Positions 651 through 47,228 of a stretch of 64,000 nt of DNA are shown here, piece after piece. The DNA comes from an uncultured Myxococcales bacterium (GTDB lineage: Bacteria > Myxococcota_A > UBA9042 > PWKZ01 > CAYRCM01), in assembly GCA_964422715.1 (NCBI GenBank), contig CAYRCM010000008.1:1894-65893 (forward strand), in the 5' to 3' direction. Position numbers and translations under genes: made by a program. Position 1 is the first letter of the stretch, and each line of letters begins with the position of its first letter. The notes below the pieces were generated by a model. That model worked only from the letters and a program-made list of their open reading frames with translations. It ran no database searches and was not told the DNA's origin.

Positions 651-890
651 CTACGGTTTCTTGCCGTCGAGCCCGGCCAGATGGTCGGCGCAGGCTTCGG
701 TCGGCAACGATTCGTAGGCCTTGAGCCCTTCTTCGCAGGGAGCGCGCTGGGCTTCGGGCAGCGGGTCGCACAGCCGTACCTTGAGGGTCTGCTTGAGGTC
801 TTCGCAGGCATTGCGGCAGCCGGACAGGCCGGCGAGAACGCCGAGCGACAGGAGCAACGCGAAGACGGCGCAGGTCGTTCGTCGGGTCAC
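651..890 (-). CDS. Small (79 aa) predicted lipoprotein with 4 additional Cys
   Basis: GTG at 890 preceded by AAGGAGG; GTGA overlap with the stop of the upstream gene (887-889). Signal MTRRTTCAVFALLLSLGVLAGLSG-C has a lipobox. Confidence 0.75.
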   Translation of the reverse strand: MTRRTTCAVFALLLSLGVLAGLSGCRNACEDLKQTLKVRLCDPLPEAQRAPCEEGLKAYESLPTEACADHLAGLDGKKP

Positions 891-3652: not shown

Positions 3653-3702
3653 CGACATCCTCCGCGCGCGGCCGGGGAGCGGAGCGCCGCGCGAACGGCG
3701 GG

Positions 3703-16703: not shown

Positions 16704-16908
16704 GCTGCACCTCCTTGCGGCTCCCGCGCTGCGGCGGTGCCGGCCGGTCGGGACCGGACCGCGGGGGCCGCGCCCGGCACCGGGCCGCGGATTTGCGCAC
16801 CCCGCATTCGGGGCGGGCGGCGGCGATCATGCCCCAGGGCGCTCCGCCGAAGCAAGCCGCGCGGGCGCGCGCTTTGAAGCCCGGCGTGGCTGTGGTATCG
16901 GTGGGCGC

Positions 16909-19908: not shown

Positions 19909-19948
19909 TGGCGGAGCGATTCGTTGGGCCACCGGATGAGGAGCGGCC

Positions 19949-20653: not shown

Positions 20654-21450
20654 GTTGCCAGGACGTACAGAAATTCGTCTACGTGTACCTCGACGGCGAA
20701 TTCGATGCCCGCGAACAGGCCGAATGGGACGCCCATCTGGCCCAGTGCCCGGCCTGCGCGCGGCTCGTCGCGGCCGAGCGCGCCTTCCGCACGCTGCTGC
20801 AGGCCTCGCTGCGCGAGCGCCCGGTGCGCGCCCCGGCCTCGCTCGTGCAGGCCGTGCGGGCGCGGCTCGACGAAGCCGCCGGCGGCGCGCGGCAGCGCAC
20901 ACGCCGGATCTTCGTGTGGGGGCCGGCGCTGGCCGCGGCGGCGGCGCTGACCGTGTTCGTGGCCGTGCGCGCCGCGGGTCCGCGCGCCCCAGACTTCGCC
21001 CCGCCCGAGCTCCGGGCCGACACCGTGGCCCCGCTCGTCGACGGCGCGGCCGAAGTGCATCATCGCGGGCTGCCGGCCGAGGTCGAAGGCCCCGAGACGG
21101 TGCTCGCCTCGAACCTCGGGGCCAAGGTGCCGTTCCGCCCCGTGCCGCCCCTGCCGGCCTCGACGGGCGCGCGGCTGCTCGGCGCCCGCGTGGTCCGGGT
21201 CGACGGCCAACCGGGCATCCAGTTCCTCTACGAGTACCACGGCCGGCGCGTGTCGGTGGTGCAATTGGCCCCCGCGCCGAGCGGGCCCGGCAGCCCGCAA
21301 CTCGCCGGCGCCCCCGTCACGCCGCGGCTCACCGAGTCGCGCGGCTACAACGTGGCGCTGTTCTCCGATCACGGCCTCACGAATTCGGTGGTGTCCGACA
21401 TCGACCAGACCGAACTGCTGCGCATCCTGCCCGCCACCTACCGCCGCTGA
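20650..21450 (+). CDS. Membrane-anchored anti-sigma factor with zinc-binding ZAS (zf-HC2) domain
   Basis: ATGA overlap with the sigma gene. MSCQDV..YLDGE...HLAQCPAC (HxxxCxxC), TM (WGPALAAAAALTVFVAV), then an extracytoplasmic domain. Confidence 0.88.
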   Translation: MSCQDVQKFVYVYLDGEFDAREQAEWDAHLAQCPACARLVAAERAFRTLLQASLRERPVRAPASLVQAVRARLDEAAGGARQRTRRIFVWGPALAAAAALTVFVAVRAAGPRAPDFAPPELRADTVAPLVDGAAEVHHRGLPAEVEGPETVLASNLGAKVPFRPVPPLPASTGARLLGARVVRVDGQPGIQFLYEYHGRRVSVVQLAPAPSGPGSPQLAGAPVTPRLTESRGYNVALFSDHGLTNSVVSDIDQTELLRILPATYRR

Positions 21451-21466: not shown

Positions 21467-22996
21467 TCACGGCGCGGCGCCGATACGCGGCTCGACGACG
21501 AGCGGTGCCGTCGTGAGCGGCACTTCGGCAAAGCCGGCCACGACGTTGACGTCGCCCGTAACGCTCGGGATGCCGGCCCCGTCGGTGACGTAGCTCTCGT
21601 AGTGCGCTCGGCTGGCGTCGCCGACCGGCAGGAAGGCGCTGATGGGGGCCGTACCGGTCGTCCAGGCGACCACGCGGCGCAGGCCGCTGTGCCGGTCGCT
21701 GAACGCGTAGGCGCGCACTTCGGCCGGCAGTTCGGCCACGGGCCCGAGCCAGCGCGCGTGGCGCTCGTCGGTCGTCTGGACGAGCCGCTGCAGGGCGTAG
21801 AACGCCGCGCGCGGCGTGCCGAGCCGCGCGGGATCGGCCCCCGGGCCGGCCCCGTCGTCGATGAGCCCGACGCCGTTCATGGGGCTCTGCGGGTCGCCGC
21901 CGTAGTTGTACCAGTCGACGAGCCCGGCCCAGAGCACGCGGGTGGCCCCGGCGGCGCGGGCCCCGACAAGGCTGCGCACGAGCCAAGCGGCCTGGTCGGC
22001 CTCGGCCCGGACGGCGAGATCGGGACGCGGCTGGCCGGCGTAGGTGGACTGGACCAGCGAATAGAGCGCGGCGGACGAATAGCCATTGCGATCGAGCAGT
22101 TCACGAATGGCAGGGCCCTCGGGCAGGCCCTCGGCGGCGCCGGCGGCGCCGTAATCGGTGACGTGCACGTCGACGGCGTCGAAGGCCCCCTGGTCCTGCA
22201 ACGCGGCCACGACGGCGGACAGGTGGCTGCCCAGGTGGCCGAGCACGACGCGCCCCTGCGGGTCGGCGGCGCGGACAGCGCCCGCGAAAACCGCGACGAG
22301 CTCGGCATAGCGCTGCGGGCTCAACCGGTTCTGGGCGATGGCGTCGGCGGGGGCCTCCATGCACTGCCAGTAGCGCACGCGCACCTCGGGGGCGAGGTCG
22401 TCTTGGCCGTCGCCGTCGTAACGTTCGACCGCGGCGCGCGTGAACGCAGCAAAGCCCTCTTCGAAGCCGTCCGGAAAGACGGGACCCTCGGTGCCGTAGC
22501 GACTCGGGTCGACGATCAGGATGGCGTTGACGGTTTTCTCGGGCGCTGCGCGGAAGACGGCCTGGAGCGTCACGTCGGGGCCGGCGGCCTCGGCAAACGA
22601 TACGGCCGATGTCAGCGTGGGCTGCAGCCGCCCCCAGACGAGCAGGTTGCGCAGCGCCGTCCAGTGCACGTCGAGGGCCACGGCCTGGGTGTCGAGCCAG
22701 GCGCCGAAGGTCTCGTCGGTCAGGCCCAGCTGCTGGCGGAAGTAGGCGAATTCCTGCCCGTAGAGTTGGAACAGCCCGTAGCTCGCCTCTTCTTCGGGCA
22801 GGGGCGGCGGGGTCTCGGGCCCCGCATCGACCGTGTCCGGACCGGTGTCGGGCGGGCCGAGGTCGGGCGCCCCGAGGTCGGGGCCCGTGTCGGGCGCGGC
22901 GGCGTCGGGTGCGCCGGCAGCGCCGCCGCCGCACGCCGTGAGCGAGAGGAGAGCGACTGCGAGCACCGGGACCGCCGTTGCCATCGTCCAGCGCAT
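21467..22996 (-). CDS. Lipoprotein with glycoside-hydrolase clan A (GH39/GH5-like) fold, possibly inactive
   Basis: GGAGG RBS; lipobox LTA-C; PDxG linker; VERYDGDG..D, VRYWQ, VRAADPQGRVVLG, FDAVDVH, GLIDDG...TPRAAFYAL resemble GH39-like barrels. Confidence 0.65.
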   Translation of the reverse strand: MRWTMATAVPVLAVALLSLTACGGGAAGAPDAAAPDTGPDLGAPDLGPPDTGPDTVDAGPETPPPLPEEEASYGLFQLYGQEFAYFRQQLGLTDETFGAWLDTQAVALDVHWTALRNLLVWGRLQPTLTSAVSFAEAAGPDVTLQAVFRAAPEKTVNAILIVDPSRYGTEGPVFPDGFEEGFAAFTRAAVERYDGDGQDDLAPEVRVRYWQCMEAPADAIAQNRLSPQRYAELVAVFAGAVRAADPQGRVVLGHLGSHLSAVVAALQDQGAFDAVDVHVTDYGAAGAAEGLPEGPAIRELLDRNGYSSAALYSLVQSTYAGQPRPDLAVRAEADQAAWLVRSLVGARAAGATRVLWAGLVDWYNYGGDPQSPMNGVGLIDDGAGPGADPARLGTPRAAFYALQRLVQTTDERHARWLGPVAELPAEVRAYAFSDRHSGLRRVVAWTTGTAPISAFLPVGDASRAHYESYVTDGAGIPSVTGDVNVVAGFAEVPLTTAPLVVEPRIGAAP

Positions 22997-23062
22997 GGAA
23001 ACCTCCCTGGGGCACGAAAGGCGCGAGAAGCGTAGCAGCCGGTCGGCCGTCGTCGCAAGGGC

Positions 23063-24034
23063 TCAGGGGACGGCGGGAGGCGCGGCGGGGCCCTCGGCCC
23101 GGCGCGCACGCCAGACGAGCAGCGCGCCGGTCGCGAGCACGATGGGCAGCCCAATCAGCTGCGACGTCGAGAGGACATCGCCAAACCAGAGGCCGCGCGC
23201 GTCGTCGCGCCAGAACTCGACGACGAAGCGCAGCAGCGCGTAGGCCAGCAGCATGCCGAGGAAGAGTTGCCCCGCGGGCCGCGGGCGGCGGCGCAGGAAC
23301 AGCCACAGGCACAGTCCGAAGATGAGCGCCGCGCCGGCCGCCTCGTAGAGCTGCGCCGGGTGCACGGGCAACGAACCCGCGGCGTGCGGCGACAGCAGGC
23401 CGAGCTCGACGTGGTGCTTGAAGGCCGGGCTGTCGAGCGGAAAGCGCAAGGCCCACGGCAAGCGGGTGGGCGCGCCGAAGCAGCACCCGGACAGCACGCA
23501 GCCGATGCGGCCGAACGTGAGCCCCAGCGGCACGCCGACGGCACAGAGATCGGCGAGCGCCCAAAACGAGAAGCGCCGCCAGCGGGCGAGCAGCAGCACG
23601 GCCGGCAAGGCCAGGATGGGTCCGCCGTAGTACGCCAGCCCGCCCTGCCACAGTTTGAACACGCGCAAACAGTCGGCCGCCGGGTAGCACAGCCCCGAGG
23701 CGGCGTCGCAGCGCGCGCCGGCCTTGCCGATGATGCACTGCGCGGCTTCGCGGCACGGCAGCCCGTAGGAGAGCGCGCGGCCCGGCAGCCGCTCCGGCTC
23801 GGTGCACAGATGCACGTAGTCCCAGAAGCCGCCGTCGGCGAGCACGTGCAGCAGCCGGGCGCCCAGGACGCCGAAGACGATCAGGACGAGGGCGGCGTCG
23901 AGGAAGTGGCGCTGGTCGAAGCCCGTACGCCCGGCGAGCCACCAGCCGAGCAGCACGGCCGCCATGAGCCCGAGGGTCAGCAGCGTGAAGTAGGCCGGCA
24001 GCTGCACGATGCCGAGGTCGATGACCGGCGCCAT
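23063..24034 (-). CDS. lgt: Prolipoprotein diacylglyceryl transferase with a 6-Cys insertion
   Basis: GARLLHV, WQGGLAYYGG, GRIGC..SGCCFG, HPAQLYE, YALLRFVVEFWR, STSQLI. Confidence 0.92.
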   Translation of the reverse strand: MAPVIDLGIVQLPAYFTLLTLGLMAAVLLGWWLAGRTGFDQRHFLDAALVLIVFGVLGARLLHVLADGGFWDYVHLCTEPERLPGRALSYGLPCREAAQCIIGKAGARCDAASGLCYPAADCLRVFKLWQGGLAYYGGPILALPAVLLLARWRRFSFWALADLCAVGVPLGLTFGRIGCVLSGCCFGAPTRLPWALRFPLDSPAFKHHVELGLLSPHAAGSLPVHPAQLYEAAGAALIFGLCLWLFLRRRPRPAGQLFLGMLLAYALLRFVVEFWRDDARGLWFGDVLSTSQLIGLPIVLATGALLVWRARRAEGPAAPPAVP

Positions 24035-24035
24035 G

Positions 24036-25070
24036 CTAGGAGGCGCGCTCCACGGACTTGCGCGCGTTGAAGGGGCTGGACTTGACGAAGAGCATCTCGG
24101 CGAGCAGCGCCACGACCCCGAGCGTGATGGCGATGTCGGCGACGTTGTACGTCGGCCAGTGACGGGTCCCGATGTACATGTCGATGTAGTCGATGACCAC
24201 GTGATAGAGCAGCCGGTCGACGAGGTTGCCCATGGCGCCGCCCAGGATGGCGGCAAACGCGATCATCGCCGAGCGGTGCCCGGGTTTGAGGCGCGCGTAG
24301 ATGACGAGGATGACGACGGCCGCAAGCGCCGAGATGAGCGTGAGGATGATGTGGCGGATGGACTCGGGCGCCGTGTTGAGGAACCCCCAAGCCGCACCCG
24401 GGTTTTCGGCGTAGATGAAGCGCAGGAAGCCCGGGATGAGCGTGACCGTGCGGTGCTGCAGCACGAAGAGGTCACCCGGGCGCACCGGCGCGGCGAGGTC
24501 GACGCCGAGCGTGGGCGCGCGGAGCGGGTAGGTGTAGCGCGCGGCCACCTCGACGGCGTCGTCCGGGTCGAGGGCGGGCACCCGTTCGCTCAGGAATTGC
24601 GCGAGCGACTTGCCTTTGTAGTGTTCGAGGACCCGGCTGCGGCGTTCGGCGGCCGACCAGTCGGGCCGGAGGTAGCTGAGCCAACGGTCGACGACGAGCG
24701 GTGTTTCGCGGTGCACGACGCGCGGCGCCAACGTCAGGTCCCGGCGGTGAAACGTGACGTACGCGAAAGCGGAACCGGGGGCAAACGCATCGGCGAACGC
24801 CGGGGCGGCCGGGTCGAGCCCCGGCGGCTCGCGCAGTTGCAGCAGGTTGTCCTTGAGCGCCGCATCGGTCGCGTCGTCGCCCGTGAGCCCGAAGCGCGCG
24901 ATGACCACGTCGCGCAACGGCCGGCCGGCTTCTTCGGGGGTGACGACGAGCGGCTGCGGGTGCTCGGGATTGGCGAGCACGCGGTCGGCCCACACCTTGC
25001 TCAGGAGGTCGGCCGCGACCACCAAGGCCACGGCGGCCACGAGAAACCAGTAGCGGCCAAAGCGCTTCAT
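24036..25070 (-). CDS. lspA: Signal peptidase II with a ~175-aa insertion (344 aa)
   Basis: ATGA overlap with ileS stop; DLLSK in TM1, ENPGAAWG, GAMGNLVDR, VIDYI, YNVAD (both catalytic Asp present). Confidence 0.9.
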   Translation of the reverse strand: MKRFGRYWFLVAAVALVVAADLLSKVWADRVLANPEHPQPLVVTPEEAGRPLRDVVIARFGLTGDDATDAALKDNLLQLREPPGLDPAAPAFADAFAPGSAFAYVTFHRRDLTLAPRVVHRETPLVVDRWLSYLRPDWSAAERRSRVLEHYKGKSLAQFLSERVPALDPDDAVEVAARYTYPLRAPTLGVDLAAPVRPGDLFVLQHRTVTLIPGFLRFIYAENPGAAWGFLNTAPESIRHIILTLISALAAVVILVIYARLKPGHRSAMIAFAAILGGAMGNLVDRLLYHVVIDYIDMYIGTRHWPTYNVADIAITLGVVALLAEMLFVKSSPFNARKSVERAS

Positions 25071-28000
25071 GCGTCCTCCGCGGGCGGTGCCATTTTGGCG
25101 ATGTGCACGGCAATGGCCTCTTTCTGGATGTCGAGCACGGTGAATCCCTCGGCGGCCTCGACCGGCCGGGCCTCGACGGCCAGCAACTCGGCCTGCACGT
25201 AGTCGCGGTGTTCGGCGAGCGCGCCGAGCAGCGTGTCGGAGGCCGTGTGATAGGCGAGCCGGATGCGGTCTTCCACTTCGAGGCCCTGGTCCTTGCGCAG
25301 CATCTGCACGCGCCGCACGAAGTCGCGCACGAGCCCTTCGCGGCGGAGCTCGTTGGTGAGCGTCGTGCGCACGGCGACGCGGCTGCCTGCGTCTTCGGCA
25401 ATGGCGAGGTCGCCCTCGGCCTGCCACGCGATGGCGACGTCGTCCGGCAGAATCTCGACCGGCGTGCCGTCGACGGTGAGCGTCGCGAGCCCGTCTTTGG
25501 CGAGCCGGGCGCGCAGCGACTCCGGGTCGGCGGCCTTGATGGCCGCGGCAACCGCCTGAACGTTCTTTGCAAAACGCGGGCCAAGGCGTTTGAAGTCGGG
25601 CTTGACCGACCAGGTGACGGGCAGCGTTTCGCCGGGTTTCAGCACGGTGACGCGCTTGACGTTGAGTTCGTCCATGAGCAGCGTGGCGAAGCGCTCGGCG
25701 GCGCGGGCCTCGGCGGCGTCGGCCGGTTGCACGAGCAGTTCGGCGAGCGGCTGGCGCACGCGCAGCCCGGCCTGGTTGCGGGCCGCGAGCCCCGCCGAGG
25801 TGAGGCGGATGGCCACCGCCATGTCGTTCATGAGCGCCTCGTCGACGAGGCCGGCCTCGAACGTTGGGAAGTCGCAGTGGTGCACGCTCTCGGGGGCCGT
25901 GCGGTCGTGGGCGCGCACGAGGTTCTGGTAGATGGCCTCGGTCACGTGCGGCACCATGGGCGCCAGCACCTGGACGAGCCCGACCAGGCATTCGTAGAGC
26001 GTCTCGTACGCCTGCACGCTGTCCTGCGATTCGCGACCGCGCCAGAACCGGCGACGGCTGCGCCGCACGTACCAGTTGCTCAGGTCGTCGATGAAGCGTT
26101 CGGCGGCGCGCCCGACCGCCCGGCAGTCGTAGCCGCCGAAGCCCTCGTGGGCCGTGCGGATGAGCTGCTGCAAGTGGCTGAGCGCCCAACGGTCGATGTC
26201 GGGCCGGCTGCCGGCCGGGCTGCGCTCGGCGGCGGGCACGTAGCCGTCGACGCGCGCATAGTTGACGAAGAAGGCGTAGGTATTCCAGAGCGTGTTGATG
26301 ACCTTGCCGCGCACCTCACGGCCGGCCGCGTAGCCGAAGTTGAGGTTGGCCGTGGGGTCCTGGCCGCAATAGATCCAGCGCATGACGTCGGCGCCCATCT
26401 GTTCGACCGCGTCGTCGAACCAGATGGCGTTGCCGAGGCTCTTGTGCATCTCGCGGCCCTGCTCGTCGCGGACGAGCGCGTGGCCGAGCAGCGTGCGGAA
26501 CGGCGCGCGGCCCTCGATCATGGTGCTCATGGCAAGCAGGGCGTAGAACCAGTTGCGGAACTGCCCGGGGAAGCATTCGAGCACGAGATCGGCCGGAAAC
26601 CACTGCTCCCAGTACGCGCGGTCTTCGTGGTAGCCCATGGTCGAGTAGGGCACGATGCCGGCGTCGAGCCAGGGGTTGCCGACGTCTTCGACGCGCCGCA
26701 TGCGGCCGCCGCATTGGGGACAGGCGAGTTCGACGGCGTCGATCCAGGGGCGGTGCGGCGTGTGCCCGGCGAGCGCATCGAGCCCGGCGACGGCGCGGCT
26801 GTCGAGTTCGGCGCGGCTGCCGATGACGTCGAAATGGCCGCAGCCGGACGTACGGCACACCCAGATGGGCAGGGCCAGCCCCCAGTAGCGCTTCTTCGAG
26901 ATCATCCAGTCGCGCATGTTGCGCAGCCAGTCGAGTTCGAGTTCCTTGCCAAACGCCGGAATCCAGCGGATGTGCTCGACGACGTCCATGATTTCCTGTT
27001 TCCAGGGGGCCATGGCGATGAACCACTCGTCGACGAGCCGGAACAGCAGTTCGGAGCCGCAGCGCCAGCAGTGCGGGTAGCTGTGCGGGTAGCGCTCGAC
27101 GTGCACGAGCAGGGCCTTCTTTTCGAGCGCCGCGAGGATGCGGTCGGTGGTCTCGTGCGACTGCGCGTGCTGCGCCACGAGCCAGTCGAAGCCCGCCACG
27201 TAGTGGCCTTCCTCGTCGAGCGGGGCGATGGCGACGAGCCCGTGTTCGCGGCCGAGTTCGTAGTCCTCTTTGCCGCAGCCGGGGGCGATGTGCACGATGC
27301 CGGTGCCTTCGCTGTCGGACACGAGCGCCCAGGGGATGACGCGGTGGCAGGTGGTGCCCTGACGGTCTTTGAGCGTGGCGTCGTACGGCACGCCGCCCGG
27401 CGTCTGCTGGGCCGGCAGATCGTCGAACGGGCCGTCGTACGTCCAGCCCACGAGCTCAGAGCCGAGCACCGTCCCGAGCACTTCGAAGCCCCCGCGGCTT
27501 TTCAGGAATTCGGCGGGACTCTGGAGCGGCGGCACGCCTTCGACCCAGCCACCGCCGGCCACGCCGGCGCGGAAGTCGGCGTCTTTGCGCCGCAGTTCGA
27601 GGGTGCCGGCGGCCAGGTAGTAGACGTCGCCGCCGGCCCGCACGCGGGCGTACACGAGGTCGGGGTGGACGGCCGCGGCCACGTTGGACGTGAACGTCCA
27701 CGGCGTGGTGGTCCACACGAGCAGGAACTCGCGGTCCCGGCCGCGCAGCGGGAAGCGCAGGAAAACGGCCCGATGCGCGGTGAGCTTGTAGCCCTCGTGC
27801 ATCTCCATCTGGGAAAGCCCGACGCCGCAGCGCGCGCACCACGGCATGACGTCGGTGCCGCGGTAGACGAGCCCGCGCTCGTGGCATTTCTTCAGGAAAT
27901 TCCAGATGGCGTAGTTGTTGCCGGGCGACATCGTGTAGTACGAGTCGCTCCAGTCCATCCAGTAGCCAAGCCGCTCCGACTGCTTCGTCTGCACGGCCGA

Positions 28001-28381
28001 GAAGCGCCGCACGCGCTCCATGCACTTCTCGACGAAGGCGCCGATGCCGTAGGCGTCGATGTCGCGCTTGCTGCGGAAGCCGAGTTCCTTCTCGACTTCG
28101 ACTTCGACCCACAGGCCCTGGCAGTCGAAGCCGTTCTGGTAGCGCAACGCATGGCCGGTCATGGCCTGGTAGCGCTGGTAGACGTCCTTGAGCGTGCGGC
28201 CCCAGGCGTGGTGCACGCCCATGGGGTTGTTGGCCGTGATGGGGCCGTCGAGAAACGAGTAGCGCGGCCCGCCGGCGCGCAACGCCCGCAGTTTGTCGAA
28301 GGCCTTCGTTTCGGTCCAGAACGCCTGGATGTCGTGTTCCAGGTGAACGATGTCGAACCACGGATCGACCTTGTGGTACAT
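25067..28381 (-). CDS. ileS: Isoleucine--tRNA ligase, type 2, with non-canonical GVHH and EMHKS motifs
   Basis: DGPITANNPMGVHH, GFDCQGL, editing VWTTTPWT and GTGIVHIAP, HSYPHCWR, DWMISKKRYWG, DLSNWYVRRSR, type-2 C-terminal EGLVRDFVRRVQMLRK; precedes lspA. Confidence 0.95.
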   Translation of the reverse strand: MYHKVDPWFDIVHLEHDIQAFWTETKAFDKLRALRAGGPRYSFLDGPITANNPMGVHHAWGRTLKDVYQRYQAMTGHALRYQNGFDCQGLWVEVEVEKELGFRSKRDIDAYGIGAFVEKCMERVRRFSAVQTKQSERLGYWMDWSDSYYTMSPGNNYAIWNFLKKCHERGLVYRGTDVMPWCARCGVGLSQMEMHEGYKLTAHRAVFLRFPLRGRDREFLLVWTTTPWTFTSNVAAAVHPDLVYARVRAGGDVYYLAAGTLELRRKDADFRAGVAGGGWVEGVPPLQSPAEFLKSRGGFEVLGTVLGSELVGWTYDGPFDDLPAQQTPGGVPYDATLKDRQGTTCHRVIPWALVSDSEGTGIVHIAPGCGKEDYELGREHGLVAIAPLDEEGHYVAGFDWLVAQHAQSHETTDRILAALEKKALLVHVERYPHSYPHCWRCGSELLFRLVDEWFIAMAPWKQEIMDVVEHIRWIPAFGKELELDWLRNMRDWMISKKRYWGLALPIWVCRTSGCGHFDVIGSRAELDSRAVAGLDALAGHTPHRPWIDAVELACPQCGGRMRRVEDVGNPWLDAGIVPYSTMGYHEDRAYWEQWFPADLVLECFPGQFRNWFYALLAMSTMIEGRAPFRTLLGHALVRDEQGREMHKSLGNAIWFDDAVEQMGADVMRWIYCGQDPTANLNFGYAAGREVRGKVINTLWNTYAFFVNYARVDGYVPAAERSPAGSRPDIDRWALSHLQQLIRTAHEGFGGYDCRAVGRAAERFIDDLSNWYVRRSRRRFWRGRESQDSVQAYETLYECLVGLVQVLAPMVPHVTEAIYQNLVRAHDRTAPESVHHCDFPTFEAGLVDEALMNDMAVAIRLTSAGLAARNQAGLRVRQPLAELLVQPADAAEARAAERFATLLMDELNVKRVTVLKPGETLPVTWSVKPDFKRLGPRFAKNVQAVAAAIKAADPESLRARLAKDGLATLTVDGTPVEILPDDVAIAWQAEGDLAIAEDAGSRVAVRTTLTNELRREGLVRDFVRRVQMLRKDQGLEVEDRIRLAYHTASDTLLGALAEHRDYVQAELLAVEARPVEAAEGFTVLDIQKEAIAVHIAKMAPPAEDA

Positions 28382-28709: not shown

Positions 28710-29183
28710 ATGCGACCCATCAGCGCTGCGTTGACCCTGGCGCTTTCTCTCTTCGCCATCGGCTGCGGCGCCATCCGCACCTCCACGGCCATCGTCGCGG
28801 CCGACGCGGCCATCGACAAAGCACGGGTGGCCCGCGCCGCCGAATTCAACGAATCGCTCTATCTCTTCCACAAGGCGCAGCTCTACGCCTCGCAGTCGCG
28901 CTTCCGAAACGGGTTTTCCGACTACCAGGTGGCCGAACTCTACGGTCGCAATGGCGAAAAATTCGGCAACGAAGCCAAGCTCGAAGCCGACCGGCAAGTC
29001 CAGCGCAAGCAGGAACGCGACGCCCGCCACGAACGGCTGCGGCTCCTGCGGATGCAGTACCAGCCGCAGGGTGGGGCGCCGGCAACGCCGACCGCCCCAT
29101 CCGCCACGCTCGCGCCGCCCCCCGAGCCGCCGCCGGCCGCCCCGTACGGCGCGCCCCCGGTGGCTCCCGGTCGCTGGCGCTAG
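28710..29183 (+). CDS. Helical lipoprotein, DUF4398-like
   Basis: AGGAG RBS; lipobox AIG-C; Ala-rich helix (A..AA..A, YLFHKAQ..A); Pro-rich tail; upstream of an OmpA gene as is usual for DUF4398. Confidence 0.7.
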   Translation: MRPISAALTLALSLFAIGCGAIRTSTAIVAADAAIDKARVARAAEFNESLYLFHKAQLYASQSRFRNGFSDYQVAELYGRNGEKFGNEAKLEADRQVQRKQERDARHERLRLLRMQYQPQGGAPATPTAPSATLAPPPEPPPAAPYGAPPVAPGRWR

Positions 29184-29217
29184 GATCTGCAAGGCCCCGT
29201 TGTTCGAGGACACCATC

Positions 29218-30336
29218 ATGCGCACGCAGTCCGCACAGCAATCCGCAGCCGCCCGGGTGCCCGACCCGCGGCGGTCGCGCGTCCCCCTCGGTCTGCTCTC
29301 GGTCGGCCTGCTCGCCCTCGCGGCGTCGTGCGTGTCGGCCGGCACGGTGCAAAGCCGCAGCCAGGAGCTCGACACGTTGCTGCTGCGCATCCAGCAGCCG
29401 GCCGCGATCTGCGCCCCACGCGAGCTCGCCACGGCCGAGGCCTTCGTCGAATTCGCGCGCCACGAGAGTTCGGCCGGCCATACGCTCTACGCCAAGATGT
29501 ACCTCGACCGGGCCCACAAGGCCGCGCAAGAGGCGTTCGTCAAGTCCAACTTCGACTACTGCGAGCCCGACACCGACAACGACGAAATCCGCGACTCGCT
29601 CGACCGCTGCCCCAAAGAACAAGAAGACTTCGACCTCATCCAGGACGAAGACGGCTGCCCCGACTTCGACCGCGACAACGACGGCGTCATGGACGATGTC
29701 GACCGCTGCCCCGACATCCAGGAAGACCGCGACGGCTTCCAGGACGAAGACGGCTGCCCCGATCCCGACAACGACCAAGACGGCATTCCCGACGCCCGCG
29801 ACCAGTGTCCGAACGACCCCGAAGACCGCGACGGCTTCCAGGACGAAGACGGCTGTCCCGACGCCGACAACGACCAGGACGGCATCCTCGACACGGCCGA
29901 CGGCTGCCCGAACGAAGCCGAAGACAAGGACGGCGACCGCGACGACGACGGCTGCCCCGACGTCTACCAGAACGTCGTCATCGCCGACGACGAAATCAAG
30001 ATCATGCAGGAAGTGCTCTTCCAGCACGGGCGCTCGCGCATCCTGTCCGAATCGTTCGGGCTGCTCGAAGAAGTGGCCAAGGCCATGCGCGACAACCCGA
30101 CGTTCCGCGTCGAGATTCAAGGCCATACCTCGTCGGTCGGCAGCGACCGCTCCAACCTGGCGCTGTCGCGCAAGCGTGCCAAGGCCGTCTGGTCGCACAT
30201 GACGGGCATCAACCGCATTCCGAAGGCGCGGCTCTCGTGGCAAGGCTACGGCGAATCGCAACTCCTCTGCATCGAAGAGACCGAAGCCTGCCACGCCAAG
30301 AACCGCCGGGTGGTCTTCAAGATCCTCTCGCGGTAG
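29218..30336 (+). CDS. OmpA-family peptidoglycan-binding lipoprotein with TSP type-3 repeats
   Basis: Lipobox LAAS-C; four 33-aa DxDxDG/DGCP repeats; OmpA-C domain (VEIQGHT, NLALSRKRA, GYGESQ, NRRVVF). Confidence 0.9.
   Translation: MRTQSAQQSAAARVPDPRRSRVPLGLLSVGLLALAASCVSAGTVQSRSQELDTLLLRIQQPAAICAPRELATAEAFVEFARHESSAGHTLYAKMYLDRAHKAAQEAFVKSNFDYCEPDTDNDEIRDSLDRCPKEQEDFDLIQDEDGCPDFDRDNDGVMDDVDRCPDIQEDRDGFQDEDGCPDPDNDQDGIPDARDQCPNDPEDRDGFQDEDGCPDADNDQDGILDTADGCPNEAEDKDGDRDDDGCPDVYQNVVIADDEIKIMQEVLFQHGRSRILSESFGLLEEVAKAMRDNPTFRVEIQGHTSSVGSDRSNLALSRKRAKAVWSHMTGINRIPKARLSWQGYGESQLLCIEETEACHAKNRRVVFKILSR
29566..29961 (+). repeat. Four 99-bp coding TSP3 (Ca-binding) repeats
   Basis: PDxDxDxDG..D..DxCP...EDxDGxxDxDGC repeated four times. 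Confidence 0.85.
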
Positions 30337-30408
30337 CCGCACCGCCGCCCCCTCCCATCCACGGCGCCGCCCTGCGCCCTGCCGGGCGCCGGAAAGCTGC
30401 CCTGCCCC

Positions 30409-31455: not shown

Positions 31456-34095
31456 CTACATGCAGGCGGTGCGGCAGGTGTCGCTCGGCAGGAAGCACCA
31501 GGCGTTCGGGTCGTCGGGGCAGGGCGCGTAGCAGGGCTCGGTGCCTTCGGTCAGCAGCGCGCAGCGCAGGCCCGGCGGGCAGTCGGCGTCGGCGCGGCAG
31601 CCTTCGTAGGCCGGGCTGCACTGGCCATAGCAGCGCTCGTAGCAGACGCCGTTTTCGCACGCGGTGACACAGGTCACTGCGTCGTCGGCCCAGGAGCAGA
31701 AGTAGCCGTCGCGGCAGGTGCTGTCGTCGGTGCAGGCGTCTTCGCCAACGAGCGGCACGCAGACCCCGACGCAGGCCGGCATGTCGCAGTTTTCGCCTTC
31801 GGGGCAATCCCAGCCGCACGTGTCGGGGTCGATCTCGCAAGCCTCACCCGACGCGCAGTCAGCGTCGGCGTAGCAGGGGGTGGGCGGCGGCGTGACGGCA
31901 GTGCAGGTGCCGGGGCAGTATTCGGGCACGCCGCCACCGTCGGGCGGCCAGTAGCCGCAGTTCGGGTCGGGCATGCACACTTCGCCGGCCGGGCAGTCGG
32001 CATCGGCGAAGCAGGCGTTCTCGATGGGCACGCAGTAGCCGCCGCACCAGCTGGGCTCGCTTGGGTCGCTGCCCGGGCACGACCAGGAATCGAACTGGCA
32101 ACGCTCGCCCGGCGCGCACTCGGCGTCGGAGTAGCAGACACCGGAGAGCGGCAGGCACACGCCGGGCTGCGGCAGGAAGTCGGGGTCGGGATTGTCACGC
32201 GGCAGGGCACAGTACTCGCCGGCGGGGCAGTCGGTGTCGCTCCAGCAACCCGGCTCGACCGGCACGCACCAGCCGCCGCACGGCATGGGGTCGCCTTCGG
32301 GGAGGGCCGGGTCGTAGCCCCAGCCGCAGTTCGGGTCGTACTGGCAGAGGGCGCCCGTGCCGCAGTCGGCGTCGGACCAGCATTCGTAGGCCATGGGCAC
32401 GCACACGCCGCCGCAGTAAGCCGGCATGCCGTCGGGGGCGTCGGGGTCGTATTCGGCGCCGCCGCAGTAACTGCCGTCGAACTGACACATCATGCCGGGC
32501 CCGCAATCGGCATCGGAGAAGCACTCGGCCGGACGCGCGACGCAGATCCCGGGGCAGTAGGCGCGGTCGGTCTCGGGCGCGTTCGGGTCGCCGTCGAAGC
32601 CGCCGCAGTAGCTCGTGTCGAACTGGCACATCATGCCGGCGGGGCAGTCGGTATCGGAGAAGCATTCGCGCTGCACGGCCACGCAGAACCCGCCGCAACC
32701 GATGCGCAGGCCCTCTTCGGGCGGTACGGCCGGGTCGTTGTAGCCGCAGTTCGGATCGAGCTGGCACACCATGCCGGCACCGCACTGGTCGTCGCTGTAG
32801 CATTCGTAGGCGATGGGCACGCAGATGCCGCCGCACGCGATATCGGCCTGCGGCGCGCCGGAAGCATCGTCACCCGCGGCCCACGTGCCGCAGTAGGTGG
32901 GGTCGATCTGGCAGTACATGCCGGCGCCGCAGTCGGCGTCGGACCAGCACTGCGGCGTGGTCGGGATGCACACGCCACCGCAGCGGGGCGGTGCGAAGGC
33001 CGCATCGCCCTCGCCCGCCGGAACGGGCTCGGCGCCACAGTTCGCCCAGTCGATGTTGCAGACGGACCCGGCGTTGCAGTCGGCGTCGGACCAGCATTCG
33101 ACCGGACGCACGACGCAGACACCGCCGCAGTAGGCCGGCATCCCGGCCGGGTCGCCCGGGGCGTAGTCGCCCCCCGCGCAGTAGTCGTTCGTGAACTGGC
33201 ACATCATGCCGGGGCCGCAGTCGGCGTCGGACCAACATTCGACCGGCGGCTCGTACGGCACGCACACGCCGCTGCAGGCCACGAACTTGTCGCCGTCCAT
33301 GCCCGGCTCGTTGGGCCATGCACCGCAGTTGGTCTCATCGATCTGGCAGATGGTGCCCGGGCGACAATCGGCGTCGGACCAGCATTCGACCGGCGGCTCA
33401 TAGGGTACGCACACGCCGCCGCAACGCGGCATGGCCTCGCCCGAGCCCTCGCCGGCCGGCGCGAAGTCGCCACAGCGGTCGCCCGAGAACTCGCACACCC
33501 TACCGGGGCCGCAGTCGGCGTCGGACCAGCACTCGACCGGCGGCTCGTAGGGCACGCACACGCCGCCGCAACGCGGCATGGCGTCGCCCGTGCCGTCTTC
33601 GGCCGGCATGTAGCCGCAGCGGTCGCCCGAAAACTCGCACACCATGCCGGGGCCGCAGTCGGCGTCGGACCAGCACGTTTGCGGGAACAGGCACTCGCCG
33701 TTGACGCACTGGCCGCCATCCGGACAGTCGCTGTCGGCGCGGCATTCGACCGGGTCGGCGACGCACTCGCCATAGCAGACGTTGCAGTCGGGACAGTCGG
33801 GAGGCACCTCGCAGGCGCCGTCGGACACGCTGCAGTGCTCGCCGGCGCCGCAGTCGGCGTTGGAGTAGCAGCCGTCGCCCGGCTCGCCGTCGATGCACAG
33901 GCACGCGCCGTTCTCACAGGCCCAACGGCCGTCGCAGGGCCCGGCCGCGGCGCAGTCGGCGTCGCTCACGCAGCCCGGGGCGTCTTCGTCGGGTGCCCCA
34001 CAGGTGGGCCCGGTGTTGCCGGCCACGAAAAGCAGCAGGGCCGCGATACCAAAGCCCTGCCAGAGCCAGCCGCCGATCGTTCGTTTCGTTTGCAT
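31456..34095 (-). CDS. Exported Cys-rich tandem-repeat protein (879 aa, ~19 C-x-SD-x-D-C units)
   Basis: GAGGAGG RBS before ATG 34095; N-terminal hydrophobic segment ending GPT-C (atypical lipobox); repeated CWSDADCGxGxxC...C...CGGVC. Confidence 0.85.
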   Translation of the reverse strand: MQTKRTIGGWLWQGFGIAALLLFVAGNTGPTCGAPDEDAPGCVSDADCAAAGPCDGRWACENGACLCIDGEPGDGCYSNADCGAGEHCSVSDGACEVPPDCPDCNVCYGECVADPVECRADSDCPDGGQCVNGECLFPQTCWSDADCGPGMVCEFSGDRCGYMPAEDGTGDAMPRCGGVCVPYEPPVECWSDADCGPGRVCEFSGDRCGDFAPAGEGSGEAMPRCGGVCVPYEPPVECWSDADCRPGTICQIDETNCGAWPNEPGMDGDKFVACSGVCVPYEPPVECWSDADCGPGMMCQFTNDYCAGGDYAPGDPAGMPAYCGGVCVVRPVECWSDADCNAGSVCNIDWANCGAEPVPAGEGDAAFAPPRCGGVCIPTTPQCWSDADCGAGMYCQIDPTYCGTWAAGDDASGAPQADIACGGICVPIAYECYSDDQCGAGMVCQLDPNCGYNDPAVPPEEGLRIGCGGFCVAVQRECFSDTDCPAGMMCQFDTSYCGGFDGDPNAPETDRAYCPGICVARPAECFSDADCGPGMMCQFDGSYCGGAEYDPDAPDGMPAYCGGVCVPMAYECWSDADCGTGALCQYDPNCGWGYDPALPEGDPMPCGGWCVPVEPGCWSDTDCPAGEYCALPRDNPDPDFLPQPGVCLPLSGVCYSDAECAPGERCQFDSWSCPGSDPSEPSWCGGYCVPIENACFADADCPAGEVCMPDPNCGYWPPDGGGVPEYCPGTCTAVTPPPTPCYADADCASGEACEIDPDTCGWDCPEGENCDMPACVGVCVPLVGEDACTDDSTCRDGYFCSWADDAVTCVTACENGVCYERCYGQCSPAYEGCRADADCPPGLRCALLTEGTEPCYAPCPDDPNAWCFLPSDTCRTACM
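31460..33972 (-). repeat. Coding tandem repeat, ~47-50-aa period; youngest copies have a 147-bp period
   Basis: CGACCGGCGGCTC recurs at 33240, 33387 and 33534; GCAGTCGGCGTCGGACCA recurs several times. Confidence 0.85.
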
Positions 34096-34448: not shown

Positions 34449-36569
34449 ATGCGTGCGCGTTTCCCCATCGTGGCGACCCTTCTGGCCGGGTGCATGCTGC
34501 TCGGCTGCGAAACCTCTTCGGCCGGCGGCTCGGGCGCGGGCGACACGAGCCCCGACGGCCTGCGCGACACCAACAACGACACGCCCGGATGGGTCTGGGA
34601 CACGGGTGGCGGCGACACCACCACGCCCGGCGGCGACACGACGAAGCCCGGCGACACCCCCGTTCAGCCCGAAATCGGTCCGCGCGACGCGACCCAGACG
34701 GTCGAGACGCGCTGCACGCCGAGCCTCGCCTGGTGCCAAGACGACGTGGCGCACAAGTGCAACTCCGACGGCACGACCGACTACGTGCGCGATTGCAGCC
34801 CGGGCGTGTGCCGCGACGGCGAATGCTACGTGTGCGCGCCGACCGAGGCCTACTGCAACGAGAGCGACCGCAACCTCTATCAGTGCAACGCCGACGGCAC
34901 GGGCGGCACCTTGCTGCAAGAGTGCAACCCGCGCTACGGCTGCTACGAAAACCGCTGCCTCGTCTGCTACCCCGGCATCAAGGACTGCGACGAACAGAAC
35001 CACGTCGTCATCTGCAACGCCGACGGCAGCGGCTGGGACATCTTCGAGGACTGCGGGGCCGCCGGCGCTGCCTGCGCCTCGCCCGGGCTCTGCGTGGGCG
35101 GCTGCGGCACCGAAATCAAGACCGGCACCAACACGGGCTGCGACTTCTGGGCCGTCGACCTCGAAAACGCCCTCGAAGAACAGCTCGGCCAGGTGTGGGA
35201 CGCGCAGCACGCCCAGTTCTCCGTCATCGTCTCCAACACGGCCGAGACGGCGGCGGCCGACATCACCATCACGCGCCCCGACGGCGTCGAGATCACGGGC
35301 TCCGTGGCGCCGGGCGACCTCCAGGTGTTCAACCTCTCCAACTACCCGAGTTGGGACTTCTCGCTCGAAGGCTCCGGCATCACGAACAAAGCGTTCCACA
35401 TCACAACCACGCAGCCGGTCAACGTGTACCAGTTCAACCCGCTGTCGAACGTGGGCGTGTTCTCCAACGACGCCTCGGTGCTGCTGCCGACCCCGGGCCT
35501 CGGCACCGAGTACTACACGGCCACGCTGCCGCAGATCACCGACGGCATCGAACCGGTCTACCGCGGCTACTTCACGGTCATCGCGATCGACGAGGAATCC
35601 ACCACCGTCACCATCACGCCGGCGGGGCCGACGCTCGCGGGCAGCGGCATTCCGGCGCTCACGGCCGGCCAGACGCACTCGGTGACCCTCCAGCGCGGCG
35701 AGGTGCTCAACGTCGAGTCCAACACCGCCGACGAGGTCGATCTCTCGGGCTCGCACATCCTCTCCGACCGTCCCGTGGCCGTGTTTTCGGGCCATGTCGC
35801 GGCCGTCACCGCCCAGGAATGCTGCGCCGACCACCTCGAAGAGCAGATGCCGCCGCTCACGTCCTGGGGCACCCAGTACGTCGCCACGCGCGCCTGGGAA
35901 CGCGGCTACGAGGGCGACTACTGGATGGTCGTCGCCTCCGAAAACGACACCACGGTCACGCTCAACCCCATGGTCGCCACCATTCCGCGCCTCAGCGCGG
36001 GCGGCAAGCACTACTTCAAGGCGTCCCAGAACTTCGTCGCCACGGCCAGCAAGCCCGTGTTGCTCGTGCAGTTCCTGGCATCGTCCTACGAGACCCCCAC
36101 CCCGCCGGGCGGCTGCTCGGCGAGTTGCCCCGAGGGCTTCTCGTGCTTCCTCGGCGACTGCCAGGGCGACTCGTGCTCCGGCAGCGGCCAGTGCTCCGAC
36201 GGCGCCACCTGCACCGAAGGCTACTGCCAGCCCATCGGCGACCCCTCGCTCATCGTGGCGGTGCCCGTCCAGCAATTCCAGGATGGCTACATCTTCCTCA
36301 CCCCCAACTCGTACCACAAAGACTACCTCAACGTCATCGCGCCCACGGGGGCGACCGTCACCCTCGACGGCGTCGACATCCCGCCCGCGAGTTTCACGGC
36401 CGTCATGGGCAGCGGGTTCGGCGTGCATCGGCGCGAGGTGCCCGACGGCACCCACGTCATCCAGAGCGACGTCCCGTTCGGCATCGTCGTGTACGGCTAC
36501 GACAAAGACGTGTCGTACGGCTACCCCGGCGGCCTCGGGCTCGAAGTCATCAACCCCAGCGACGAATGA
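34449..36569 (+). CDS. Lipoprotein with Cys-rich region and IgGFc-binding-protein N-terminal-type domain (706 aa)
   Basis: AAGGA RBS; lipobox LLG-C; GDT-rich linker; Cys-rich repeats; VYQFNPL, SNDASVLLP, SDRPVAVFSGH, DHLEEQMPP, GDPSL, YGYPGG. Confidence 0.82.
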   Translation: MRARFPIVATLLAGCMLLGCETSSAGGSGAGDTSPDGLRDTNNDTPGWVWDTGGGDTTTPGGDTTKPGDTPVQPEIGPRDATQTVETRCTPSLAWCQDDVAHKCNSDGTTDYVRDCSPGVCRDGECYVCAPTEAYCNESDRNLYQCNADGTGGTLLQECNPRYGCYENRCLVCYPGIKDCDEQNHVVICNADGSGWDIFEDCGAAGAACASPGLCVGGCGTEIKTGTNTGCDFWAVDLENALEEQLGQVWDAQHAQFSVIVSNTAETAAADITITRPDGVEITGSVAPGDLQVFNLSNYPSWDFSLEGSGITNKAFHITTTQPVNVYQFNPLSNVGVFSNDASVLLPTPGLGTEYYTATLPQITDGIEPVYRGYFTVIAIDEESTTVTITPAGPTLAGSGIPALTAGQTHSVTLQRGEVLNVESNTADEVDLSGSHILSDRPVAVFSGHVAAVTAQECCADHLEEQMPPLTSWGTQYVATRAWERGYEGDYWMVVASENDTTVTLNPMVATIPRLSAGGKHYFKASQNFVATASKPVLLVQFLASSYETPTPPGGCSASCPEGFSCFLGDCQGDSCSGSGQCSDGATCTEGYCQPIGDPSLIVAVPVQQFQDGYIFLTPNSYHKDYLNVIAPTGATVTLDGVDIPPASFTAVMGSGFGVHRREVPDGTHVIQSDVPFGIVVYGYDKDVSYGYPGGLGLEVINPSDE

Positions 36570-47164: not shown

Positions 47165-47228
47165 CCGGACGGCCGCGCCGGGGCGCCGGGGCCCGTCGCA
47201 GGCCGCTTTGCAGGCCCTTGATTTGGCG

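Follow-up and report, generated by a model that had tools for sequence, protein, structure and literature searches.

The stretch of DNA that we analysed, 64,000 nucleotides from an uncultured Myxococcales bacterium (hereafter the window), contains an ileS-lspA-lgt cluster encoding a type-2 isoleucyl-tRNA synthetase, a lipoprotein signal peptidase II of unusual length and a prolipoprotein diacylglyceryl transferase (Table 1). According to the gene calls, the stop of ileS and the start of lspA overlap by 4 nt and a single nucleotide separates lspA from lgt; the three genes are translationally coupled in the window, which holds one lspA and one lgt over its 64 kb. The same gene order is found in the loci of relatives (L001-L003 and L022). 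The 509-aa lipoprotein encoded just 3′ of lgt had no match in Pfam, NCBIfam or the PDB, and it is not conserved at that place in relatives, where a second lgt is found instead. A scan of the 21-29 kb region for promoters and terminators gave nothing beyond chance, and a search of the 20-30 kb region against Rfam gave no match.

Table 1. Features of the 64-kb window discussed in the text.
Feature	Position	Strand	Description
small lipoprotein	651..890	-	lipobox LSGC; overlaps the stop of the Cys-rich gene
Cys-rich repeat protein	887..3658/3724	-	923-945 aa; 138-140 Cys; lipobox-like SVGC
509-aa orphan lipoprotein	21467..22996	-	lipobox LTAC; 66 nt 3′ of lgt
lgt	23063..24034	-	323 aa; prolipoprotein diacylglyceryl transferase
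Lgt signature motif variant GRIGCVLSGCCFG	23474..23512	-	R143 and G154 kept; N146 and E151 are Cys; from the 5azb alignment
six-Cys module in Lgt arm-2 (TM2-TM3 periplasmic arm)	23666..23812	-	residues 75-123; ~45 aa
lspA	24036..25070	-	344 aa; lipoprotein signal peptidase II, 'long' form
catalytic Asp312 codon of lspA	24135..24137	-	equivalent to P. aeruginosa D143; invariant in the long-LspA alignment (A1); aligned to 5dir
catalytic Asp294 codon of lspA	24189..24191	-	equivalent to P. aeruginosa D124; invariant in the long-LspA alignment (A1); aligned to 5dir
LspA periplasmic insertion domain	24471..24974	-	residues ~33-200; between TM1 and strand 1 of the beta-cradle
C-terminal module copy of the insertion	24483..24632	-	residues 147-196; hhalign
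N-terminal ~50-aa module copy of the insertion	24798..24944	-	residues 43-91; hhalign
ileS	25067..28381	-	1104 aa; type-2 isoleucyl-tRNA synthetase; leads the cluster; Pfam tRNA-synt_1, Anticodon_1, DUF5915
157-aa lipoprotein	28710..29183	+	lipobox AIGC; divergent from ileS
OmpA/TSP_3 lipoprotein	29218..30336	+	lipobox AASC
Cys-rich repeat protein	31456..34095	-	879 aa; 119 Cys; ECWSDADCGPG repeats; Pfam Dickkopf_N, DUF7107
IgGFc_binding-domain lipoprotein	34449..36569	+	lipobox LAGC; 706 aa; 32 Cys
secF	62509..63855	-	448 aa; TIGR00966 298.4 bits (cut-off 160); end of secD upstream
extra ~130-aa segment of SecF, periplasmic P4 domain	63070..63561	-	residues ~99-262; alignment gap

LspA is usually a compact, single-domain protein of ~170 aa (about 150-200 aa). 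The LspA of the window lies outside this range, with ~165 aa beyond the family profile. Peptidase_A8 (PF01252) matched with 118.1 bits (cut-off 25) over residues 207-328 alone, the equivalog TIGR00077 matched with 103.1 bits (cut-off 73.95), and the LspAs in the PDB (5dir, 6ryo and 9emz; 169-188 aa) aligned to residues 205-332 alone. Since the Pfam and PDB matches start only at residues 205-207, the ~165 additional residues are located between TM1 and the beta-cradle. An identical LspA was present on two independently assembled contigs (SRR12133403 and SRR12133404), and the insertion is therefore not an assembly artefact. Compact size is a descriptive, not a defining, feature of the LspA family.

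To judge the enzyme core we relied on the residues that we take to be conserved in LspA, namely D23, K27, N54, G56, N112, R116, D124, N140 and D143 in P. aeruginosa numbering. Their equivalents in the window protein (D21, K25, N223, G225, N282, R286, D294, N309 and D312) show no or almost no variation among 14 long LspAs and align to 5dir, so that the active site is intact. The AF2 model of full-length LspA (pLDDT 89.3, pTM 0.82) contains four TM helices, at residues 5-31, 236-260, 266-289 and 310-328, as well as strands at 201-223 and 292-300, and Foldseek superposed the core of this model on 5dir (E 3e-11) and on 6ryo. Judged from its sequence, the long LspA is best read as a probable catalytically competent signal peptidase II, and we are highly confident that it represents an active LspA carrying an accessory domain that is both real and novel.

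The insertion is built from a duplicated ~50-aa helix-helix-strand module and a beta-hairpin. The duplication was detected with hhalign, which aligned the N-terminal half with the C-terminal half over 49 columns (probability 88%, E 3.1e-6); the insertion of one relative (L015) has two N-type modules. When the insertion domain was modelled alone, AF2 returned a pLDDT of 95.3 and a pTM of 0.88, and this very high confidence points to conserved packing. Pairwise identity among the long LspAs is 24% in the insertion versus 47% in the core, indicating that the fold is kept while the insertion sequence diverges. The GC3 of the insertion is 0.89, similar to that of the core, the domain has an acidic character, with a mean net charge of -4.5, and H37, P38, P116 and R117 are its conserved surface-candidate residues.

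Searches with the insertion did not connect it to a described family. Neither nine insertions nor 32 modules had a Pfam match at E<=10, NCBIfam matched the LspA core only and left the insertion uncovered, and a PDB sequence-profile search gave an unrelated protein as its best match (E 0.88). Foldseek comparison of the insertion with the PDB yielded only non-significant local matches of ~45 residues (best E 0.59, TM<=0.21), and comparison with BFVD yielded nothing significant. A POTRA, LysM or S4 identity of the repeated module, suggested by its pattern, was dropped since Pfam, PDB-profile and Foldseek searches gave no such match. We consider the insertion a candidate for both a new fold and a new Pfam family. 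A thioredoxin- or Dsb-like oxidoreductase was likewise rejected: the only DsbA match in Foldseek was noise (E 6.6, TM 0.14), and the insertion has neither a CxxC motif nor a thioredoxin-like match. The window LspA is free of cysteine, as are the insertions of 68 of the 75 family members. The disulfide-handling role that the initial annotation had suggested is therefore excluded for the LspA insertion.

The insertion is restricted to a single clade of MAGs from uncultured Myxococcota. An alignment-based search of a large protein database recovered ~85 clusters of long LspA at 90% identity, all with full-length coverage and 312-389 aa in length. The insertion was seen solely in LspA-sized proteins and at the same position each time; its length ranges from 128 to 193 aa, and loss was never seen within the clade. 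All long forms fell into one clade in a core-only NJ tree built without bootstrap. The LspAs of L019 and L023 (181-182 aa) and that of L024 are without the insertion. In L020, a DUF4398-like gene occupies the place that the 157-aa lipoprotein has in the window.

Taken together, these results are consistent with an ordinary ileS-lspA-lgt housekeeping cluster in which a lineage-specific ~165-aa domain has been inserted at the TM1/beta-cradle junction of LspA. From chain topology we infer the position of this domain relative to the cradle and the active site: both of its ends would be anchored at the periplasmic face of the membrane, by the beta-cradle, which is the proposed holder of the residues just past the lipobox cysteine (PMC6952399). 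Because both ends are anchored beside the cradle, the insertion would extend the docking surface of LspA for a substrate or partner, and could retain, position or select prolipoproteins by their mature part as it emerges. In this genome, the mature parts of prolipoproteins start with a tether that is long, disordered and rich in Pro, Gly, Asp and Thr. Simple electrostatic capture of acidic tethers is unlikely, because the insertion is itself acidic. An active housekeeping LspA with a lineage-specific docking platform at the beta-cradle is our best explanation overall, and we consider it to have an even chance of being correct; that the platform serves substrate docking or selection in particular is a more tentative proposal. 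A docking role had been put forward in the initial annotation, and the presence of a conserved domain by the substrate-binding cradle keeps it plausible.

A bolder version, in which this unseen periplasmic fold would give LspA a second, regulatory capability (gating or selection, product hand-off, or macrocycle tolerance), is rather unlikely. Somewhat less likely again is that the insertion serves as a protein-protein or envelope docking module, tethering LspA to Lgt, Lnt, Lol components or the cell wall and not to its substrate. This possibility draws on the nature of the insertion, a stand-alone globular domain with conserved surface candidates, and on its recurrence next to an OmpA-family peptidoglycan-binding gene pair in three subclades. 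However, synteny with housekeeping genes carries little weight, Pfam, PDB-profile and Foldseek searches gave no LysM, SPOR, OmpA or POTRA signal in the insertion, and the arm-2 module of Lgt described below occurs without the LspA insertion.

Equally doubtful is a role of the long LspA as a specialised paralogue for some substrates only, with the housekeeping work done by a canonical LspA encoded elsewhere in the genome. Four lspA copies, LspA1-4, are present in Myxococcus xanthus (PMC8689077). The long lspA is located apart from lgt in two subclades (L020 and L021), and in related MAGs a short lspA accompanies lgt-lgt2; this separation leaves room for a specialised paralogue. However, the long form fills the canonical ileS-lspA-lgt slot in the window as well as in L001-L003 and L022, and the 64 kb contain no second lspA.

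Less probable still is a shield or lid that would limit the access of macrocycles (myxovirescin, globomycin-like) to the LspA active site and so confer intrinsic tolerance. Both antibiotics occupy a pocket under and next to the beta-cradle and extracellular loop (PMC6952399), and the insertion would be anchored at the cradle; producers handle LspA inhibition via extra lspA copies (PMC8689077), and the phylum to which the clade belongs is rich in such metabolites, made by myxobacteria and their competitors. On the other hand, no biosynthetic cluster adjoins lspA in the window, and the antibiotics enter from the plane of the membrane, a route that a domain in the periplasm may leave open. Finally, it is very improbable that the insertion is a decoration tolerated without any specific function: while the insertion site is a surface loop and other Polyangia LspAs have unrelated small inserts and disordered tails, the retention of length and fold at only 24% identity, the monophyly of the clade with no loss and the conserved packing implied by AF2 all argue against it.

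The second enlarged protein of the cluster is Lgt. It matched PF01790 with 182.4 bits (cut-off 24.9) and the equivalog TIGR00544 with 107.4 bits, slightly under the cut-off of 118.9, and its residues 119-313 match PDB 5azb (E 4e-24). Gene calls, Pfam and PDB alignment confirmed what the initial annotation had reported, that LspA and Lgt both have extra periplasm-facing sequence, ~165 aa in the former and ~45 aa in the latter. In Lgt this sequence is a module with six cysteines (C77, C94, C100, C109, C116 and C122) located between TM2 and the YGG motif (H103GGL in E. coli), within arm-2 as defined earlier (PMC4728403). Arm-2 guards the substrate entry cleft, and recent evidence indicates that it sets the substrate specificity of Lgt (PMC13251419, PMC4728403). 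There is no CxxC pair among the six arm-2 cysteines, whose most likely role is structural, in disulfides that would stiffen the arm. A 4-Cys or 6-Cys module was found in 85 of 86 Lgt homologues, counting those whose loop a regular expression could delimit, and the Cys-type arm-2 is widespread across Myxococcota.

The residues essential for Lgt are Y26, H103, R143, N146, G154 and R239 in E. coli numbering (PMC13251419). The window Lgt keeps R143, G154 and R239, as well as Y235, E243 and R246, while H103 is replaced by Tyr and N146 by Cys; the alignment begins past Y26. Both replacements occur in natural Lgts, and N146C and E151C/D are known from distant family members (PMC13251419).

SecF, at the far end of the window, had also been described as enlarged, and indeed its 448 aa include ~130 extra residues in the periplasmic domain. 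In alignment with D. radiodurans SecDF, residues 8-98 correspond to 439-526 and residues 263-441 to 558-736, with a gap between them, and residues 126-300 of E. coli SecF (5mg3_F) align to residues 258-432 of the window protein. Enlarged SecF is common in relatives, with homologues of 424-485 aa. Since more than 100 related clusters have it, the enlargement is a lineage trait.

The initial annotation placed these enlargements among giant Cys-rich surface lipoproteins. Reading signal peptides and lipoboxes by eye, we found a signal peptide followed by a Cys at all six of the lipobox starts that it listed (651, 887, 21467, 28710, 29218 and 34449), and its two Cys-rich proteins of ~900 aa do contain 138-140 and 119 Cys, respectively. 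The protein at 887 has the lipobox-like SVGC, and the protein at 31456-34095 has a signal peptide and no clear lipobox (…NTGPTC…), which leaves one plausible lipoprotein among the two giants.

It had further been proposed that LspA, Lgt and SecF, through their add-ons, work together as a co-adapted machinery for chaperoning, docking or oxidising very large lipoproteins rich in disulfides, a reading that we now regard as highly unlikely. In its favour, each of the three enlargements is real and periplasm-facing, Cys-rich proteins often occur close to long lspA (in the window, L002, L003, L016 and L022, the fetched loci giving no usable control group), and the inner four-Cys motif of Lgt arm-2 bears a weak likeness to the repeats of the 31456-34095 protein (10.3 bits versus <=3.3 for shuffled sequences). 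However, Cys-type Lgt adjoins an insertion-free LspA in three loci (L019, L023 and L024), the long lspA stands away from lgt twice, the LspA insertion lacks Cys, CxxC and a thioredoxin-like fold, and a lipobox-like motif is present in just one of the two giant Cys-rich proteins; a Cys-rich ORF is also present in L018, a locus with a 4-Cys Lgt. The enlargements also differ in phylogenetic range. One co-evolved system of LspA, Lgt and SecF is therefore not supported, and the six-Cys module of Lgt and the enlarged SecF are separate, older traits that are widespread in Myxococcota.

LspA is regarded as a minimal, invariant four-helix enzyme, and it is an antibiotic target. That a monophyletic group keeps a well-folded extra domain at the cradle through long divergence shows that LspA is open to elaboration, and the clade offers a natural experiment on the cradle region, be it in substrate selection, hand-off or inhibitor access. 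Similarly, a Cys-stabilised Lgt arm-2 found across Myxococcota bears on arm-2 as the setter of substrate specificity. Should the regulatory reading be true, the LspA of this clade would be a two-function enzyme and not a minimal four-helix protease; should the insertion be inert, a modest annotation note would remain.

Collectively, the window LspA shares with canonical LspAs (family A8; P. aeruginosa 5DIR, S. aureus 6RYO/6RYP) the four TM helices, the beta-cradle, the Asp-Asp dyad and every conserved residue, with 26-36% identity in the core and TM scores of 0.64-0.73 to these targets. Unlike them, it is of double length and has a folded domain of ~165 aa in place of a TM1-cradle linker of 3-5 residues, a domain absent from solved or curated LspAs as compared in Pfam, NCBIfam and the PDB. 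The extra length of the sampled Polyangia LspAs, by contrast, consists of terminal tails and not of an insertion of the window type. In M. xanthus, a member of the same phylum, lspA and lgt make up a co-transcribed pair with a housekeeping role (PMC8689077); unlike that species with its four copies, the 64-kb window holds a single lspA. Compared to E. coli Lgt (5AZB/5AZC), arm-2 has grown from ~20 to ~65 residues, a six-Cys expansion that is not described in PMC4728403 or PMC13251419, while the H103 to Tyr and N146/E151 to Cys replacements have been reported for distant Lgts; Lgts of the N146C type include those of Leptospira interrogans and M. smegmatis (MSMEG_5408). Similarly, the TM core of the window SecF aligns with SecF/SecDF of E. 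coli (5MG3), D. radiodurans (5XAN) and T. thermophilus (3AQP) at E 1e-47 to 1e-64, whereas its P4 domain is ~130 residues longer, giving a protein of 448 aa versus 323 in E. coli.

The window has a G+C content of ~70%, so genes were called by third-position GC. The ileS stop and lspA start overlap by 4 nt and lspA and lgt are separated by 1 nt, and the three genes are therefore very probably co-translated, with LspA occupying its canonical housekeeping slot. The protein passes the TIGR00077 equivalog, while Pfam Peptidase_A8 matches residues 207–328 only (118 bits) and solved LspAs (169–188 aa) align to residues 205–332. In an alignment of 14 LspAs carrying the insertion described below (long LspAs), the family-conserved residues, including the catalytic pair D294 and D312, are invariant or nearly so; judged from its sequence, the enzyme thus looks active. 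The ~165 extra residues (33–200) follow TM1, which ends …DLLSKVWADRVLA, and precede the first strand of the β-cradle. Since the N-terminus of LspA is cytoplasmic, this insertion is periplasmic, which bears out the initial annotation in assigning LspA an extra periplasm-facing domain. The insertion is genuine and not an artefact: two metagenome contigs that were assembled independently encode exactly the same protein, and within the insertion GC3 (0.89) is similar to its value in the remainder of LspA (the core).

AlphaFold2 was run on full-length LspA with 15 sequences as input. The resulting model (pLDDT 89.3, pTM 0.82) contains the four expected TM helices and the cradle strands, and Foldseek recovered with it the LspA core only (5dir, E 3e-11). 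Modelled alone with an alignment of 74 full-length homologues, the insertion folds with pLDDT 95.3 and pTM 0.88 into an α/β structure of five to six strands and six helices. Foldseek matched it to nothing in the PDB (best E 0.59, TM ≤ 0.21) or BFVD, and nine insertions gave no Pfam match at E ≤ 10. It is acidic (mean net charge −4.5), and its best-conserved positions are H37, P38, G49, F107, P116, R117 and G199. The insertion is a conserved autonomous periplasmic domain, and from chain topology both of its ends join LspA at the base of the β-cradle. Comparison of its N and C halves by hhalign revealed an internal duplication (residues 43–91 versus 147–196; probability 88%, E 3e-6). With a profile of 32 modules, neither a PDB sequence (best E 0.88) nor any consistent Pfam family was recovered; S4, LysM and POTRA-like small domains, considered because of the module pattern, were not confirmed and are not claimed. 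In the 309-aa LspA of locus L015 the insertion is made up of two N-type modules, and this doubling suggests that modules are gained and lost.

A complete HMMER search of 1.84 billion representative proteins, queried with just the insertion, returned 15 proteins, all matched at residues ~33–185 of an LspA-sized protein or of a contig-end fragment of one. The domain was found nowhere else and is specific to LspA. A profile search retrieved ~85 clusters (90% identity; 312–389 aa) with full-length coverage, all named 'signal peptidase II' and all from MAGs labelled Myxococcota, Myxococcales, Deltaproteobacteria or Pseudomonadota, with no isolate among them. In long LspAs 180–225 residues separate the TM1 motif from YAENPGAAW, a spacing that by our count is ~30 in P. 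aeruginosa LspA. Other Polyangia LspAs (200–320 aa) differ in that their extra length is disordered terminal tails. In a neighbour-joining tree of 126 core columns, built without bootstrap, the forms with 128–193 inserted residues make up one clade separate from the short forms; compared pairwise, insertions are 24% identical and cores 47%. In the LspAs of L015 and L016 the insertion is shorter, at ~130 aa, and there the lspA–lgt pair lies next to HxsD and radical SAM genes in divergent orientation. Three Polyangiales MAG LspAs (P0219–P0221) have a different, much smaller insertion of ~24 aa with a Cys (…PPPLCAPPPG…) at the TM1/cradle junction, suggesting that this junction accepts insertions repeatedly.

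The β-cradle has been proposed to hold residues C-terminal to the cleavage site, and the binding sites of the antibiotics globomycin and myxovirescin lie below and next to it (PMC6952399). We tentatively favour, as one possibility among several, a role in which the domain would widen the surface on which the mature part of a prolipoprotein can dock as it emerges, or on which a partner protein can, thereby tuning substrate handling. That it instead docks a partner or the envelope seems unlikely. Equally improbable is that long LspA is a specialised paralogue working beside an unseen canonical LspA: the gene sits in the housekeeping slot, and profile searches in all six frames found a single lspA, and a single lgt, in the 64 kb. 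Shielding of LspA from inhibitors, whose binding sites adjoin the cradle, is a still more doubtful role, and a neutral decoration, against which the conservation of the fold speaks, is very unlikely.

Lgt scores 182 bits against PF01790 and falls narrowly below the TIGR00544 equivalog cut-off (107 versus 119). The alignment with E. coli Lgt (5azb) covers residues 119–313, and upstream of the YGG motif (H103GGL in E. coli) Lgt has ~45 more residues than the E. coli protein, with six Cys at 77, 94, 100, 109, 116 and 122. The TM2–TM3 region is the arm-2 of Mao et al., which comprises ~20 residues in E. coli and borders the front cleft on one side (PMC4728403); the six-Cys segment falls in arm-2, and the extra periplasm-facing sequence claimed for Lgt is also real. 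Legood et al. 2026 (PMC13251419) reported that the protein-substrate specificity of Lgt depends on arm-2, H103 and the head domain, that Y, W or F may stand in place of H103, and that distant Lgts have C for N146 and C or D for E151. The window Lgt shows these already published substitutions (Y136; GRIGCVLSGCCFG) and retains R143, G154, Y235, R239, E243 and R246. Among the 120 best Lgt homologues, a regular expression delimited the arm-2 loop in 86, with six Cys in 29 and four in 56; a Cys-stabilised arm-2 is accordingly, on these sequences, a phylum-wide trait not specific to this locus. Polyangiaceae are among the named sources, as are other Myxococcota MAGs. The module lacks CxxC pairs, and we read its Cys as probable structural disulfides in an oxidising periplasm. 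It is common in sequence databases and is not mentioned in PMC4728403 or PMC13251419. Six relatives have a tandem lgt pair, the second copy having a shorter arm-2 with 4–6 Cys; in the window the one lgt is followed by an orphan lipoprotein gene without detectable family.

SecF (448 aa) is enlarged as proposed. E. coli SecF 126–300 align to its residues 258–432, and ~130 residues of the periplasmic part, between ~98 and ~263, are unmatched by D. radiodurans SecDF. The 120 best relatives are 424–485 aa long at 95–100% coverage, which makes the enlargement, too, a lineage trait. The inserted segment has no separate Pfam hit and is common to >100 related clusters.

The initial annotation had joined these enlargements into one machinery for large Cys-rich lipoproteins, a reading we now consider highly improbable, because the three are distributed separately. 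Six-Cys Lgts adjoin short LspAs (181–182 aa) in L019 and L023, a Polyangiaceae five-Cys Lgt adjoins an LspA without the insertion in L024, and in two subclades (L020, L021) long lspA lies away from lgt. This evidence argues that they are not one system. The proposed disulfide handling by the LspA domain fails as well, since the window domain has no Cys, as in 68 of 75 members overall; a redox role is thereby excluded.

The order ileS–lspA(long)–lgt–lgt2 recurs in L001–L003 and L022. In L020 and L021 long lspA neighbours a small DUF4398-like gene, an OmpA/TSP_3 gene and uppP, a trio found in the window on the opposite side of ileS. The DUF4398-like lipoprotein and OmpA/TSP_3 genes adjoin long lspA in three subclades, accompanied by uppP (BacA) in the window and L020. 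In L002, L003 and L022 the ileS–lspA order is that of the window with a type-1 IleS, so that the IleS type has apparently been exchanged at a conserved gene position. Outside the ileS–lspA–lgt region the window is ordinary chromosome, with recJ, secDF, a methyltransferase, a TPR protein, an LD-carboxypeptidase, a patatin, glycogen phosphorylase, rbfA, uppP and an OmpA-family gene.

Both of the ~900-aa Cys-rich proteins noted initially are real, with 138–140 Cys in protein 1 and 119 in protein 2, but a lipobox-like motif is present in the first only. All six listed lipobox starts show, by eye, a hydrophobic signal stretch and then a Cys. The repeat units differ, being ~60 aa (CGDG.C…GE….C..DC) in the first protein and ~45 aa, starting ECWSDADCGPG and with a Dickkopf_N hit, in the second. 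Long lspA often has Cys-rich ORFs nearby, and they are also present in L018, a locus without an assigned LspA type. In Lgt arm-2, the inner motif with four Cys (CxxDADC…LC…C) bears a weak resemblance to the ECWSDADCGPG repeats (10.3 bits versus ≤ 3.3 in 40 shuffles), and a small disulfide-knot building block may be common to both.

Coordinates of features in the window and in related metagenome loci (L numbers)
Feature	Source	Position	Strand	Remarks
Small lipoprotein gene	window	651-890		overlaps stop of Cys-rich protein 1 gene
Cys-rich protein 1	window	887-3724	-	923-945 aa
1073-aa protein	window	16588-19809	+	PD40/beta-propeller repeats, weak Omp85-like C-terminal match; L013 counterpart annotated with Tricorn domains
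ECF sigma/anti-sigma pair	window	19940-21450		between 1073-aa and 509-aa protein genes
509-aa lipoprotein gene	window	21467-22996	-	66 nt beyond lgt
lgt	window	23063-24034	-	323 aa
Lgt arm-2 Cys module	window	23666-23812	-	contains the inner four-Cys motif
lspA	window	24036-25070	-	344 aa
ileS	window	25067-28381	-	1104 aa; long type-2, with DUF5915
DUF4398-like and OmpA/TSP_3 genes	window	28710-31260	+	
DUF4398-like and OmpA/TSP_3 genes	L020	4512-7769		
DUF4398-like and OmpA/TSP_3 genes	L021	9160-10586		
Cys-rich protein 2	window	31456-34095	-	879 aa
TPR protein	window	47222-58072	+	3616 aa; C-terminal third dense with TPR repeats; second-position GC 0.35, unusually low
SecF insertion	window	63070-63561	-	
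lspA, shorter insertion	L015	5062-5991		309 aa
lspA, shorter insertion	L016	5002-5967		321 aa
Tandem lgt pair	L001	2932-3936		
Tandem lgt pair	L002	7932-9068		
Tandem lgt pair	L003	7340-8263		
Tandem lgt pair	L019	6038-6925		
Tandem lgt pair	L022	9997-10908		
Tandem lgt pair	L023	6999-7964		
Type-1 ileS	L002	3155-5986		~930 aa; C-terminal Cys cluster
Type-1 ileS	L003	2607-5414		~930 aa; C-terminal Cys cluster
Type-1 ileS	L022	5219-8008		~930 aa; C-terminal Cys cluster

No description of an LspA with a periplasmic insertion domain was found in Pfam, NCBIfam, the PDB or the searchable literature. Unlike the window protein with its ~165 residues, P. aeruginosa LspA has just a few residues at this position.
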